This document shows positions 4,372-62,754 of a DNA stretch of 64,000 nucleotides, piece by piece. The stretch spans positions 4,514 through 68,513 of the forward strand of contig DASZRC010000027.1 in NCBI GenBank assembly GCA_035549315.1, in the 5' to 3' direction. The DNA is from Patescibacteria group bacterium. Lineage in GTDB: Bacteria; Patescibacteriota; Microgenomatia; Levybacterales; GWA1-39-11. Below the pieces are notes generated by a model, which saw only the letters and a program-made list of their open reading frames with translations, was not told the origin of the DNA and ran no database searches. Position 1 is the stretch's first letter. Each line of letters starts with the position of its first letter. Position numbers and translations under genes: made by a program.

Positions 4372-4935
4372 ATGGCGAATTCACCTCATGTGAAGATTAA
4401 TCTTATTGGCAAGAGCGAAGTATCCTTTAGGGATGACATACTCAAGTGGGCAATAAGCGTGGGAAGAATCATTATAGTTGTTACAGAACTTGTAGCCGTA
4501 GGGGCGCTAGCCTACAGATTTACCATAGATAGAAAAATAGTTGACCTCCACGATCAAATAAAAAAAGCGGATCTTTTTGTAGAAGCTCAGGCAGCAAAGG
4601 AAGCAGACTACAGAAGCATTCAAAACAGGCTTGCTAATATTAAAACAATAGATACTGATGCTGAAAACAAAATCTCTATCATGAAAGAAATCCTCGCCTC
4701 TATGTCTACCGGAGATTTTTCGTCTACAAATCTAACCGTTAGCCAAAAATCTATAAACATAAATGGTGTAGCCTTTTCCATTTTCCCAATAAACAATTTT
4801 ATAGAGGAGCTTAAGAAAAATCCCAATGTTACCTCTATCAGCCTTGATGACATATCAAGCACAGATGAAGGGGTTAAATTTAAAATGACAATTGAATTAA
4901 AGCAAACAACAAATTTACCAGATGAAACTAACTAA
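4372..4935 (+). CDS. pilN: Type IV pilus assembly protein PilN-like
   Basis: The short cytoplasmic N-terminus carries an INLIG motif (the PilM-binding INLLP-like motif), followed by a single TM, a coiled coil and a C-terminal domain. A PilO-like gene follows with a 14-bp overlap. Confidence 0.55.
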   Translation: MANSPHVKINLIGKSEVSFRDDILKWAISVGRIIIVVTELVAVGALAYRFTIDRKIVDLHDQIKKADLFVEAQAAKEADYRSIQNRLANIKTIDTDAENKISIMKEILASMSTGDFSSTNLTVSQKSININGVAFSIFPINNFIEELKKNPNVTSISLDDISSTDEGVKFKMTIELKQTTNLPDETN

Positions 4936-20232: not shown

Positions 20233-22116
20233 ATGGAAAACATTCTCAATAAACTAAACGCGGAACAAAAAGTTGCAGTTGTAGCAACAGAAGGACCAAT
20301 TATTGTTCTGGCAGGAGCAGGATCCGGGAAAACTCGTGTACTTATTAATCGCGCCCTTTATTTGGTAGTGGAGAAAAAAGTAAGACCGGAGAATATCTTA
20401 CTAGTTACATTTACAAATAAAGCTGCCGGAGAAATGCTTGAGAGGATTACCAAAACATTTAGCGAGTTCAAAATATCCGGCCAACCAATTGTTGGAACGT
20501 TTCATTCAATATGTTCAAAAATATTAAGACGGGATGGAAGAAGTATAAATATCCCAATAGGTTTCCAAATATTTGACGACCAAGACCAATTAGAAACTGT
20601 AAAGGAAGCTTTTTCTTTTCTAGATATTAGCATTAAAGACATAAAACCAAGGTCAGTACTTGCAACTATATCCCAGGCAAAAAACCAAATGATTGACCCT
20701 GCCTCTTATGAATCTTTTGCGCGGGGATATTTTCAGGAAACAGTTGCAAAAATTTACCCCATATATCAAGGCTTATTGCGGGACCATGAGGCCCTAGACT
20801 TTGATGACCTTATGCTAAAAACTATTGAGTTGTTTAAAAATGACCCAATTGTTTTGTCCCGCTACCAAGACCAATTCCAATATATTATGGTAGATGAGTA
20901 TCAGGATACAAATGAGGCCCAATTCCAACTTACAAAACTTCTTGCTGGAAAGGAAAGAAATGTTTGCATAGTTGGAGATTTCTCCCAAAGTATATATTCT
21001 TTCCGTGGGGCGGATTTTAGGAACTTGGAAAAATTTAAAAGGGATTTCCCGGAAAGTAAAACTTTCCCTCTTTCCCAAAACTATCGCTCTACCCAAAATA
21101 TTTTGAATGCTGCCTACTCTGTGATTTCCAATAATACAATGCACCCTGTTTTATCACTCTGGACACAAAACCATGAGGGAGAAGAAATAAAAATATTTCC
21201 GGCAAATAGCGAACACAATGAGGCAGAATTTATAATTGAAGAAATTACCCTTGCCCAATCACGTGACCCCCGCGTAAAGTTTTCTGATTTTGCCGTACTC
21301 TATAGAACAAATGCGCAATCAAGGGCCCTGGAAGAAACTTTTTTGCATAACTCTATTCCATATATATTAGTAGGTGGCACAAGATTTTATGAGAGACGGG
21401 AAGTAAAAGATGTTCTTTCATACATTGCCTACCTTGCAAATCCCAAAAACAAGGTTGCTCTAAAAAGAATTACAAAGCTTGGGAAAAGAAGATTAGAAAA
21501 ATTCCAAGAATTTGTAAAAGAATTCCAGGAAAATGATTATTTATCCAAGAAAACTACAATAGAAGTATTAGATGACGTGTTGAACAAATCTACTTACCTA
21601 AGTCTTTACAATGAAGAAGATCCGGAAGACAAGGCAAGACTTGAGAATATAAAAGAACTGCGCTCTGTGGCAATTGAATTTCCAAATCTTAATTTATTTT
21701 TGGAAAACGTAGCTCTTGTTGAACAGCAATATTCCTCTAATGGAGCGATGCCAGACCTGCCTGCCGGCAGGCAAGGTGGGCCAGTTGGGGAAAATCCGGA
21801 CGCTGTAACTCTTATGACAATGCACGCAGCAAAAGGACTAGAGTTTGGGACAGTGTTTATTGTTGGAATGGAAGAAGGATTATTCCCCCACTCCCAATCA
21901 ACTTTTGATACAGGAGAACTGGAAGAAGAAAGAAGACTTTGCTATGTTGGAATAACAAGGGCCCGCCACAAACTTTATCTTACTTTTGCAAAAAGAAGAT
22001 TATATTTTGGACAACTTGTAAGTAATTCTATTTCCAGATTTATTTTTGAACTTCCGGAAGAAGTTTTGAAAGCAAATTATATAGAAAGAATAGCCAATGA
22101 ACCGGAGTGGATGTGA
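20233..22116 (+). CDS. uvrD: ATP-dependent DNA helicase, UvrD/PcrA (SF1) family
   Basis: Motif I is VLAGAGSGKT, motif II is VDEYQDTN, motif V is TLMTMHAAKGLEF and motif VI is YVGITRAR. A 7-codon palindromic-element insertion (DLPAGRQ) lies just upstream of motif V. Confidence 0.85.
   Translation: MENILNKLNAEQKVAVVATEGPIIVLAGAGSGKTRVLINRALYLVVEKKVRPENILLVTFTNKAAGEMLERITKTFSEFKISGQPIVGTFHSICSKILRRDGRSINIPIGFQIFDDQDQLETVKEAFSFLDISIKDIKPRSVLATISQAKNQMIDPASYESFARGYFQETVAKIYPIYQGLLRDHEALDFDDLMLKTIELFKNDPIVLSRYQDQFQYIMVDEYQDTNEAQFQLTKLLAGKERNVCIVGDFSQSIYSFRGADFRNLEKFKRDFPESKTFPLSQNYRSTQNILNAAYSVISNNTMHPVLSLWTQNHEGEEIKIFPANSEHNEAEFIIEEITLAQSRDPRVKFSDFAVLYRTNAQSRALEETFLHNSIPYILVGGTRFYERREVKDVLSYIAYLANPKNKVALKRITKLGKRRLEKFQEFVKEFQENDYLSKKTTIEVLDDVLNKSTYLSLYNEEDPEDKARLENIKELRSVAIEFPNLNLFLENVALVEQQYSSNGAMPDLPAGRQGGPVGENPDAVTLMTMHAAKGLEFGTVFIVGMEEGLFPHSQSTFDTGELEEERRLCYVGITRARHKLYLTFAKRRLYFGQLVSNSISRFIFELPEEVLKANYIERIANEPEWM
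21754..21775. repeat. Palindromic element GACCTGCCTGCCGGCAGGCAAG, copy 1, inserted in-frame in the helicase CDS where it encodes DLPAGRQ
   Basis: A 19/20 perfect palindrome, read directly from the sequence. Confidence 0.85.
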
Positions 22117-23203: not shown

Positions 23204-24290
23204 TCTAATAATGGATCAGTTCATTGATATCACAGAGGAAAATAGAGATGATTACAACAAAGTTGTTGATCATCCACTCCAATCCTATGAGTGGGGAGAA
23301 TTTCGCAAAAAAACCGGAGTAAAAGTAATAAGACGCGGACTTGTCAGAGACCTGCCTGCCGGCAGGCAGGTTGTCGATGGATTTACACTAACCCTTCATA
23401 AGGTTCCAAAAACAAAATACTACATTGGCTATCTTCCAAAAGGAAACAAACCCACCCCCCAAATCTTGGAAGAAATAAAAAGAATAGGAATAGAAAATAA
23501 ATGCATATTTATTCAACTCGAACCAAATTTGGTCAATGGTCAATGGTCAATGGTCAAAGGTTTTAATTTAAAACGCGCAGCACATCCACTGTTTACCAAA
23601 TACACTTTTGTTCTTAACATGCAACATACCGAAGAGGAATTGTTAAAAAATATGCATCCAAAAACTCGCTACAACATAAGGGTTGCAGAAAAACACGGGG
23701 TCAAAGTAAAAGAAGATAATTCAGAATCTGCTTTTAATAACTACCTTAAACTTATGACAGAAACAACAGACAGACAAGGATTCTATGCGCACACCCCTTC
23801 TTATCATAAACACTTATGGGAGATTTTATCAAAAAACGAAAAACGAACCACGAACCACAATTCCTTAACATATCATCTTATTAATGCAACCTATAAGCCC
23901 ACGACTAACGACGAACGAACTACAAATAACGATGCAGTTTTAACATCTTGGGTTTTGTTTGTTTTCCATGACCATCTCTATTATCCGTATGGCGCTTCAA
24001 GCCGCCTGTACCGCGAAACAATGTCTAATAACTTAGTTGCATGGGAAGCAATAAAGTTTGGTAAAAAATTGGGATTAAAAGATTTTGATATGTGGGGAGC
24101 GCTAGGTCCGGAGCCAGATAAGAATGATCCTTGGTATGGATTCCATAGATTCAAACAAGGGTATGGTGCAGAACTTGTGGAATTTGTAGGAAGCTACGAC
24201 TTAGTTATAAAACCCGCTTCTTATGAAGTTTATAAAGTTATGGATAAGCTGCGCTGGGCCGCATTAAGAGTCAAAAAAATGATTGGGTAA
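23193..24290 (+). CDS. FemAB/FemX-family peptidoglycan-bridge (aminoacyl-tRNA-dependent) peptidyltransferase
   Basis: The N-terminal motif HPLQSYEWGEF is a FemX/MurM-type motif, and the C-terminal region reads …HDHLYYPYGASS…GYGAELVEF. The CDS contains a palindromic-element insertion (DLPAGRQ), a (GGTCAAT)4 tandem repeat and a low-complexity insertion. Confidence 0.65.
   Translation: MIYNLIMDQFIDITEENRDDYNKVVDHPLQSYEWGEFRKKTGVKVIRRGLVRDLPAGRQVVDGFTLTLHKVPKTKYYIGYLPKGNKPTPQILEEIKRIGIENKCIFIQLEPNLVNGQWSMVKGFNLKRAAHPLFTKYTFVLNMQHTEEELLKNMHPKTRYNIRVAEKHGVKVKEDNSESAFNNYLKLMTETTDRQGFYAHTPSYHKHLWEILSKNEKRTTNHNSLTYHLINATYKPTTNDERTTNNDAVLTSWVLFVFHDHLYYPYGASSRLYRETMSNNLVAWEAIKFGKKLGLKDFDMWGALGPEPDKNDPWYGFHRFKQGYGAELVEFVGSYDLVIKPASYEVYKVMDKLRWAALRVKKMIG
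23348..23369. repeat. Palindromic element GACCTGCCTGCCGGCAGGCAGG, copy 2 (a perfect 20-bp palindrome), inserted in-frame in the FemAB-like CDS where it encodes DLPAGRQ
   Basis: Seen in the sequence. Confidence 0.85.
23531..23558. repeat. Heptanucleotide tandem repeat (GGTCAAT)x3 plus GGTCAAA, lying inside the FemAB-like CDS where it encodes NGQWSMVKG
   Basis: Seen in the sequence. The unit length is not a multiple of 3. Confidence 0.85.
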
Positions 24291-48330: not shown

Positions 48331-48810
48331 CTATCTATCCTTTATCCGATAGACAAATTTTAAACCTGAATAGATATCATTTATTGCTGCAACTTTTACA
48401 TCTACCAAGCCGTTTTTAAGACCTATTCCCCGAATTATATTTTCATCAAGATCTGTAACAACGCCAGATGTTTTTTTGGGCCAAGATACCCAAAGAGCAC
48501 CATCTTTTTTGAGATGAACAAAAGCTTGTCTAAATAGAGTCTCTAGATCCTCTTTTGACTTAGAAAATATGTGTATGTAGTCAAAATTTCCATCCAATTT
48601 GTTTTTAGCCACTATATAATAAGGAAGCTCACCCAGGGATTCTTTAAAATCGCTAGGCTCGTTGATAAATATAACTCGGGAATTTTCTTTTATCCCAAGC
48701 TTTTTATAAAGTGGAGTACTTGAATAGCCAGTCATAAGCCTGTTCTTAGATATTAGATCTTGGATCTTAGATTTATATAAAAGATATAAGCAATTGTAGC
48801 ATAATTGCAT
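48331..48810 (-). CDS. Hypothetical protein. The true start may be the internal Met at ~48735.
   Basis: ORF only. Confidence 0.4.
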   Translation of the reverse strand: MQLCYNCLYLLYKSKIQDLISKNRLMTGYSSTPLYKKLGIKENSRVIFINEPSDFKESLGELPYYIVAKNKLDGNFDYIHIFSKSKEDLETLFRQAFVHLKKDGALWVSWPKKTSGVVTDLDENIIRGIGLKNGLVDVKVAAINDIYSGLKFVYRIKDR

Positions 48811-57182: not shown

Positions 57183-57238
57183 GCTAGCTGATAAGCTTAG
57201 GGCTAGCAATTTTTATTTCTTAATTCTTAATTTTTATT

Positions 57239-57270: not shown

Positions 57271-57367
57271 GCTTTAAACATTGAAAATTAACAATTGATT
57301 AGAAATTAGTAATTAAAAATTGGAAATTAAATGGAAATCCATTTGAAATGGTATAATTGTAAGAAGT

Positions 57368-60178: not shown

Positions 60179-60244
60179 TTATATCATTCATCATTAATCT
60201 ACAATCAATAATCATTAATTTATTATTGTTGGTATAATAGGTTC

Positions 60245-61948: not shown

Positions 61949-61988
61949 AAAATGATTAATGATTTACGAATAACGAATAATGAATGCA

Positions 61989-62016
61989 TCTTTAATCTTT
62001 AATCTTTAATCTTTAA
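61989..62016. repeat. Heptanucleotide tandem repeat (TCTTTAA)x4 in the divergent intergenic region between comF and the SOD gene
   Basis: Seen in the sequence. Confidence 0.85.
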
Positions 62017-62090
62017 TCTTTAATACTGTTATCATATATCTATTAACTCTTTCTTACAAAATTATAATGGTGTAGAATTAGGATAATAAT

Positions 62091-62696: not shown

Positions 62697-62754
62697 TTAG
62701 TTCTTAGATCTTGGTTCTTAGATATTTAGGTTACCTCCTTGGTATAATCCACTT

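Follow-up and report, generated by a model that had tools for sequence, protein, structure and literature searches.

Heptanucleotide repeats in a FemX-like gene of Levybacteria: a coding array that probably slips and occasionally breaks the reading frame

A short array of heptanucleotide units lies within a gene for a predicted FemX-like peptidoglycan bridge transferase on contig DASZRC010000027.1 (assembly GCA_035549315.1) of a Patescibacteria group bacterium. The stretch of 64,000 nt that was analysed (positions 4,514 to 68,513 of the forward strand) is here called the window. The array is probably a genuine slippage-prone simple sequence repeat (SSR) in the coding sequence for a permissive surface loop, one case of a habit that extends across the Levybacteria and would occasionally knock out the gene. 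The frameshift mechanism by change of unit number is supported, while adaptive phase variation is unproven. We infer that replication slippage is the process generating these arrays, and the array of the window organism presumably behaves like the orthologous arrays in which slipping was seen.

The 359-residue product of the gene matched the FemAB family (Pfam PF02388) with an E-value of 2.5e-32 and 112.6 bits, against a curated cut-off of 24, and a profile of its orthologues matched the FemX (6snr) and FemA (1lrz) proteins of Staphylococcus aureus. An AlphaFold2 (AF2) model of the protein (pLDDT 88, pTM 0.86) had FemX 6snr, FemA 1lrz and a Weissella FemX as its top Foldseek matches, with TM values of 0.71-0.79, and is predicted to adopt the two-domain GNAT-like FemX fold. 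From these family and model matches, the protein is a predicted FemABX aminoacyl-tRNA-dependent peptidoglycan bridge transferase. It is identical to NCBI HVZ67484.1, from a Patescibacteria metagenome-assembled genome (MAG), and an exact copy was also found on one Logan contig, giving two contigs overall for this organism. Its nearest relatives are Levybacteria, which belong to the Candidate Phyla Radiation (CPR), the closest orthologue (L002) being 78% identical. CPR bacteria are uncultured and tiny, and are thought to live attached to host cells. No second FemAB copy able to cover an off state was found within the 64-kb window. Two FemAB-family copies were seen in one MAG (CAZMSF01; contigs L011 and L015); in some Levybacteria, then, a paralogue could compensate if one copy is lost.

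The preliminary description of this DNA had reported four tandem copies of a 7-nt unit inside the FemAB-like coding sequence, and this was confirmed with a shift of one base. The register reported, GGTCAAT (23531-23558), has three perfect units and a fourth that reads GGTCAAa (A for T at 23558), whereas (TGGTCAA)x4 is perfect, with ...CCAAATT before it and AGGT... after it (Table 1). Four copies need a lag-7 run of 21 matches; in 300 windows simulated with a third-order Markov model of the window the longest run was 12, and 21 was reached in 0/300. The TGGTCAA unit contains no stop codon in any of its three frames. In the AF2 model, strands 98-105 and 131-136 are joined by a non-regular stretch (residues 106-130) that contains the repeat-encoded residues, and the 10-residue blocks of this loop, here called loop 1, have pLDDT values of 68-78 compared with the mean of 88. 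Simulated changes in copy number bore out the frameshift that had been predicted: with 1, 4 or 7 copies the frame is kept (352, 359 and 366 residues), whereas with 2, 3, 5, 6 or 8 copies translation stops at 113-127 residues.

Loop 1 was compared in 81 Levybacteria sequences, namely the window and 80 species-level orthologue loci (the best 80 tblastn hits), and an array was called where lag-7 identity was at least 80% over 21 nt. Heptanucleotide arrays of about four copies were found in 33 of the 81 loops, 20 of them with at least 90% lag-7 identity. At other lags the same loops gave 0/81 (lags 4-6 and 9-12) and 2/81 (lag 8), and only 3 of 1313 control segments elsewhere in the same loci reached the lag-7 criterion. 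An alignment of 34 orthologues showed that the segment between QLEPN and HPLFT is hypervariable. The peptide NGQWSMV is common to proteins P0003 and P0010 despite about 70% overall identity, and peptides of other orthologues back-translate to different 7-nt repeats. The units found at loop 1 across species include TGGTCAA, AAGTTCA, AAGAATC, AAATTGG, CAAATTT, AAATTCG, ATTTCGG, AACTCTC, AAATCAC and AGATCTA, among others, and the encoded peptides vary just as widely (NGQWSMV, ISNFKFQ, KNQESRI, ENLKLKI). Two further hot spots of heptamer arrays occur in FemAB genes, about 300 nt and 380-400 nt downstream of loop 1. The earlier suggestion that this gene is unusually permissive holds: it has heptamer hot spots at three places, and its orthologues carry inserted palindromes. 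The two loops with a period of 8 belong to related orthologues (L030, 882-986; L036, 3175-3279), with units AGATACTA/AGATATTA and CCTAATAT.

The preference for a period of 7 extends beyond the FemAB gene. In 581 kb of Levybacteria DNA, 54 arrays were found at lag 7 compared with 0-1 at lags 5, 6 and 8-11, and perfect repeats of at least three copies numbered 24 for period 7, 8 for period 4 and none for periods 5, 6 and 8-15. The density of arrays in FemAB was about 16-fold above that of the flanks (39 of the 54 arrays, on roughly 15% of the sequence), and 48 of the 54 were inside long open reading frames (ORFs), in a sample that was centred on FemAB. Each array, whether in the window or in the other loci, is built of a unit of its own. 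In different Levybacteria, the UvrD-like helicase and TIM-like genes also carry arrays at recurring protein positions, again with differing units, and no fewer than six spacers between genes of the window contain heptamer arrays with different units (Table 1). The arrays in these genes and spacers speak for a general tendency of the lineage to mutate in this way, not for a dedicated switch.

Natural alleles that differ by whole units were found in two other species. When the N-terminal 106 residues were used as query, only short FemAB fragments came back, one of which (P0157) stops within a GAAAATT/TAAAATT array; its 30-kb contig, L084, has three units, with the remaining FemAB sequence intact in another frame. 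Adding one unit to L084 yields a 319-residue protein that is exactly P0170, which is present on 45 contigs and 67 index blocks, and four units were found in 10 of 10 intact contigs of the same population. L084 differs from these ten contigs by 4-8 single-nucleotide polymorphisms in 5.3 kb and a single 7-nt gap, while the intact contigs differ from each other at 2-18 positions. The periodic stretch in this species is only 20 nt long, about 2.9 perfect copies, yet the loss of a unit was seen. In the second case, P0156 (contig L085) has (AAAATGG)x2; with four units it is exactly P0172, and its DNA is identical to that of L099 over the whole gene save for a 14-nt gap, that is, two units. Both verified changes are deletions. 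Contigs L101 and L102, whose fragments came from a profile search, switch frame at AAATTGG-type arrays and have loops 14 and 7 nt shorter than typical, and are probable further cases of slippage; the restoration of frame was not counted as proof here because 7-nt units arithmetically repair any +/-1 frameshift. A perfect GAAAATT run creates a TGA codon, which would explain the alternation of G and T units in the L084 species.

Other candidates were set aside. P0154 (L086) and P0161 (L087) were rejected as array frameshifts, as their contigs pass into unrelated sequence after the array. In L086 (2540-2799) the FemAB N-terminus is followed by a heptamer array, a small palindrome and the C-terminus of a TsaD-like protein, and in L087 (610-800) by an array and unrelated sequence; these junctions are either chimeric assemblies or rearrangements at arrays. 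L100 (P0212) is ambiguous as a slippage case, being a low-coverage SPAdes contig in which the rest of the gene is more than 1 kb away.

In the proposed mechanism, short arrays whose units are exactly 7 nt long, in most cases with 3-5 copies spanning some 21-37 nt, would arise and be remodelled, most likely by replication slippage, and would persist where the sequence is unconstrained, as in the three FemAB loops, the loops of other housekeeping genes and intergenic spacers. Since 7 is not a multiple of 3, successive units are translated in different frames, and a unit has to lack stops in all three. Only total lengths that keep the frame would survive as the consensus, and the loss or gain of one or two units would truncate the protein just after the array. 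Unit losses do happen and, in related species sampled from nature, can be the form that is assembled as the consensus; the array would thus be a mutational hot spot of few copies that turns FemAB on or off at low frequency.

The closest known mechanism appears, by analogy, to be the poly-psi variable number tandem repeat of NeuO, from the E. coli K1 prophage CUS-3, followed by the heptanucleotide tracts of Haemophilus influenzae, both with many more copies. The NeuO tract is a coding heptanucleotide, (AAGACTC)n, that begins 2 nt past the start codon; it ranges from 2 to 93 copies, high-frequency switching is characteristic of it, and the number of copies also tunes the activity of the enzyme (PMC3046976). 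As in NeuO, the window array has a 7-nt unit within an ORF, three units encode one 7-residue peptide, one class of copy numbers modulo 3 gives the full-length enzyme, and the enzyme modifies a polymer of the cell envelope; in NeuO, the gain or loss of single units by slipped-strand mispairing is the switching event. Unlike NeuO, the window tract lies at residue 107, has four copies and is constant in three diverged lineages, variation being seen only in the orthologous arrays of other species. The H. influenzae tracts, mostly of 6-38 units, include the promoter repeats of hmw1A and hmw2A and an (AACAACC)n tract within or close to the gene of a TonB-dependent receptor (PMC2651432). There too, differences in unit number leave the ORF intact or truncated and the inference came from genome comparison, but the tracts belong to surface and iron-uptake genes of a host-adapted pathogen and differ in copy number among nearly all strains.

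Excess of heptamers has been described in other bacteria as well. Passages of PMC4692102 cite Mrazek 2007 for an excess of heptameric SSRs, for which a polymerase-slippage bias towards 7-nt units was proposed, and describe the short tandemly repeated repetitive (STRR) sequences of Calothrix and Nostoc and the heptamers of Xanthomonas as mainly intergenic, with a few dominant unit families per genome. As these passages present them, such repeats resemble the Levybacteria arrays in the genome-wide excess of 7-nt units and in occupying the same positions in related genomes with varying length and sequence; they differ in that each Levybacteria locus has its own unit, that many arrays are in frame in housekeeping genes and that the lineage is CPR. 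Literature searches turned up no account of frameshift-type repeat switching in CPR, the nearest being an in-frame 9-mer (PTD) repeat in a hypervariable gene of Gracilibacteria (CPR), discussed as slipped-strand mispairing (PMC6851277). It is likewise a repeat-driven variable locus in a CPR bacterium, but its unit is a multiple of 3 and causes no frameshift, its array is long and it lies in a putative surface protein.

The history of the array shows both stasis and turnover. An array of 32 nt (4.6 copies) is common to the window, L003 (3308-3339) and L083 (about 693-724); it is perfect in L083, and that of L003 has two differences from the window and one from L083. Between the window and L003, DNA identity is 70% overall and 47% at third positions, compared with 94% and 83% for codons 106-117. 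A CAAATTT x5 array is likewise identical in L033 (3301-3335) and L045 (3247-3281). Third positions are about 45-49% identical elsewhere in the gene in both sets of lineages. Neutral decay would not leave such arrays so intact, and their preservation across synonymously saturated lineages remains unexplained. Pairs of orthologues that share one array family have a loop identity of 0.71-0.84, with 0.64-0.72 in the rest of the gene, compared with a loop identity of 0.48 in random pairs. The loop of L002, the closest relative, is without any repeat. Judging from these sequences, loop 1 would have stayed unchanged for long periods and now and then been replaced outright. The idea that a conserved seed (TGGTCAATGG) expanded independently was rejected as a sufficient explanation of the identical arrays in three lineages, because the loop minus 21 nt would be 36 nt, below the minimum of 51 nt among the 81 orthologues.

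Several findings weigh against reading the tract as slippage-prone. The window, L003 and L083 retain the length of the array and its peptide although their proteins are 73-74% identical outside the loop, where third-position identity is 45-46%, near synonymous saturation, and a neutral tract that slips freely would not be expected to remain so constant. The QLEP and HPLFT motifs are in one frame in all 81 orthologues, a count that may be biased against split genes, as only the top 80 tblastn hits were kept. Products of the window allele with 1, 2, 3, 5, 6, 7 or 8 copies were absent from a collection of 15 billion proteins, in which only the four-copy product was found; with two contigs for this organism, the power of that look-up is low. 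All four off alleles (L084, L085, L101 and L102) come from one ENA family of MEGAHIT assemblies (ERZ2725xxxx), and a project-specific artefact behind them is not fully excluded. FemAB fragments broken elsewhere, often after runs of T or A, are at least as numerous as those broken at arrays. The preliminary description had named exactly four copies in all reads and related strains, with conserved encoded residues, as the signs that would speak against phase variation; what was found comes close to this, the 4.6-copy array and its peptide being kept in three lineages.

As to the off alleles, collapse of the de Bruijn graph was judged an unlikely origin by argument from assembler principles alone, because the periodic stretch of the L084 species is 20 nt long and because a two-unit deletion needs k-mers that are absent from the intact allele. 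No variants of +/-1 or +3 units of P0170, P0172, P0034 and P0003 were found by exact look-up in the protein collection. A metagenome scan for CCNAAYNTNGTCAATGGTCAATGG returned one unrelated chance match only (L082) and missed the L083 contig from JGI, so the collection is incomplete for this purpose. Truncations outside the arrays recur in P0162, P0166, P0165, P0192, P0197 and P0158, two of them as FYAH|GENI.G*, others after HPLF (a T-run) or after an A-run, and may be homopolymer sequencing errors or real slips.

The array could also be a true contingency locus, as the preliminary description had proposed, in which second-order selection keeps it as a reversible switch of the bridge enzyme, and a subpopulation with an altered cross-bridge would escape, for example, bridge-specific lytic enzymes, phage or host factors. 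In S. aureus, fem mutants that build shortened bridges are resistant to lysostaphin. The recurrence of arrays at one position with unit turnover in 41% of species, their 16-fold density in FemAB, the nucleotide-level preservation of perfect arrays (TGGTCAA x4.6 and CAAATTT x5) between synonymously saturated lineages, and the off alleles, in which nothing else is broken and which fall within the range of variation of the intact population, all fit such a switch. What stood of the proposal are the truncation by a change of one or two units, the slipped alleles at the homologous loop of two other species and the permissiveness of the gene. Against it, four copies are far below those of known switches (2-93 in NeuO, PMC3046976; mostly 6-38 in H. 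influenzae, PMC2651432), off alleles are rare (2 contigs compared with 45-67 records in the best-sampled species, counted as 45 contigs and 67 index blocks, and 0 of the 81 representatives), and no re-expansion or in-frame variant of +/-3 units was found beside the two deletions. Similar arrays lie in UvrD- and TIM-like genes, for which a switch would be implausible, the enzyme is cytoplasmic and the window has no paralogue for the off state. We regard a true contingency locus as rather unlikely. The opposite possibility, that the array is a stable fossil of one old duplication burst, now ordinary coding sequence for NGQWSMV with no meaningful instability in this lineage, agrees with the identical array length and peptide of the three lineages, with shared arrays being conserved as much as, or more than, the rest of the gene, with the lack of variants of the window allele in the protein collection, and with the imperfections common to the GAAAATT/TAAAATT arrays of L014, L057, L062 and L080. 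It is improbable, however, since unit deletions at orthologous arrays, one of only about 2.9 perfect copies, reached the consensus in natural samples, the repeat-free loop of L002 indicates that the loop turns over, and selection on the peptide alone leaves the third-position conservation within the array unexplained.

Selection at the protein level was also considered, as three units (21 nt) encode 7 residues and a heptad peptide could suit an amphipathic helix. In the alignment, S. aureus FemX and FemA have a longer insertion at the second hot spot, which we take to be their coiled-coil arm. At loop 1, an alignment by hidden Markov model to 6snr places a longer, non-repetitive segment of S. 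aureus FemX (TDALQNLKALGF), and short helical turns are predicted at residues 112-118 in the AF2 model. Perfect DNA repeats that include third positions cannot stem from protein selection, period 7 dominates the intergenic spacers too, the encoded peptides differ widely and the window holds only 1.4 heptads, making this explanation very improbable. A slippage-prone SSR in a permissive loop remains the favoured reading. A more far-reaching proposal, which we consider rather unlikely, is that Levybacteria, and perhaps other CPR bacteria, keep short heptamer arrays at fixed FemAB positions as a bet-hedging switch, with a heptamer-specific slippage or homogenisation process holding the arrays perfect across synonymously saturated lineages. 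If true, no contingency locus would have been described in CPR before, and this one would act on the chemistry of the wall's cross-bridges and not on a surface protein. The conserved FemAB hot spot offers a testable case, as intact and broken natural alleles in two species differ within the gene by repeat units only, and the recurrence of 7-nt arrays at the same loops of housekeeping proteins bears on how a slippage bias may create new loop sequence. In practice, heptamer arrays can split genes in metagenome annotations.

Table 1. Repeat arrays and associated features of the window and of related Levybacteria contigs
Feature	Position	Strand	Basis
FemX/FemA-family (peptidoglycan bridge aminoacyl-transferase) coding sequence, 359 residues	23211..24290	+	ORF; Pfam, profile and structure matches
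Hypervariable loop 1 coding segment, 57 nt, between invariant QLEP(N) and HPLFT motifs	23526..23582	+	Alignment, orthologue loop DNA, lag-7 scan
Perfect array (TGGTCAA)x4, encoding L107-K116 (LVNGQWSMVK)	23530..23557	+	Sequence reading and script
Extended array, period 7, 4.6 copies, 96% matches, one mismatch (A at 23558)	23530..23561	+	Tandem Repeats Finder (TRF)
Second, composite array (AAAAACG)x2.3 + (ACGAACC)x2.3, encoding KNEKRTTNHN	23830..23860	+	TRF rows 23832 and 23843; lag-7 scans
Possible degenerate third 7-periodic stretch (ACGACTA ACGACGA ACGAACT ACAAATA ACGATG..., PTTNDERTTNND)	23899..23935	+	Read from sequence; weak, no TRF call
In-frame GC-rich palindrome CCTGCCTGCCGGCAGGCAGG, encoding LPAGRQ; an insertion class separate from the repeat	23351..23370	+	Sequence reading
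Intergenic heptamer array cluster of the window	57208-57236, 57298-57329, 60183-60219, 61951-61985, 61988-62024, 62697-62723; also 48746-48787
Arrays in UvrD-/TIM-like genes	L007 2080-2113; L056 1215-1249; L063 1333-1364, 2397-2428; L031 797-836; L062 872-912

The same coding sequence holds further repeats downstream of loop 1. The low-complexity insertion that the preliminary description had mentioned is present and is itself 7-periodic; this composite array is located at the second FemAB hot spot, about 300 nt from loop 1. The possible third stretch lies at the third hot spot, where the arrays of orthologues sit at +380 to +400 nt. A second dip of confidence in the AF2 model (pLDDT 60, residues 231-240) matches the low-complexity insert and this region.

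The palindromic insertion noted earlier in the coding sequence was also found, in frame. A near-identical copy, in frame and again encoding LPAGRQ, occurs in the upstream UvrD-like helicase gene (about 21756-21775). Other GC-rich palindromes were seen in the same FemAB loops of L006, L008, L056, L068, L069, L073 and L081, and in L069 and L073 the palindrome is positioned within the heptamer array. Among the intergenic arrays of the window, ATCTTTA x5.3 (61988-62024) is perfect, and some adjoin small hairpins, such as GACTCCGATCAAATCGGAGTT.

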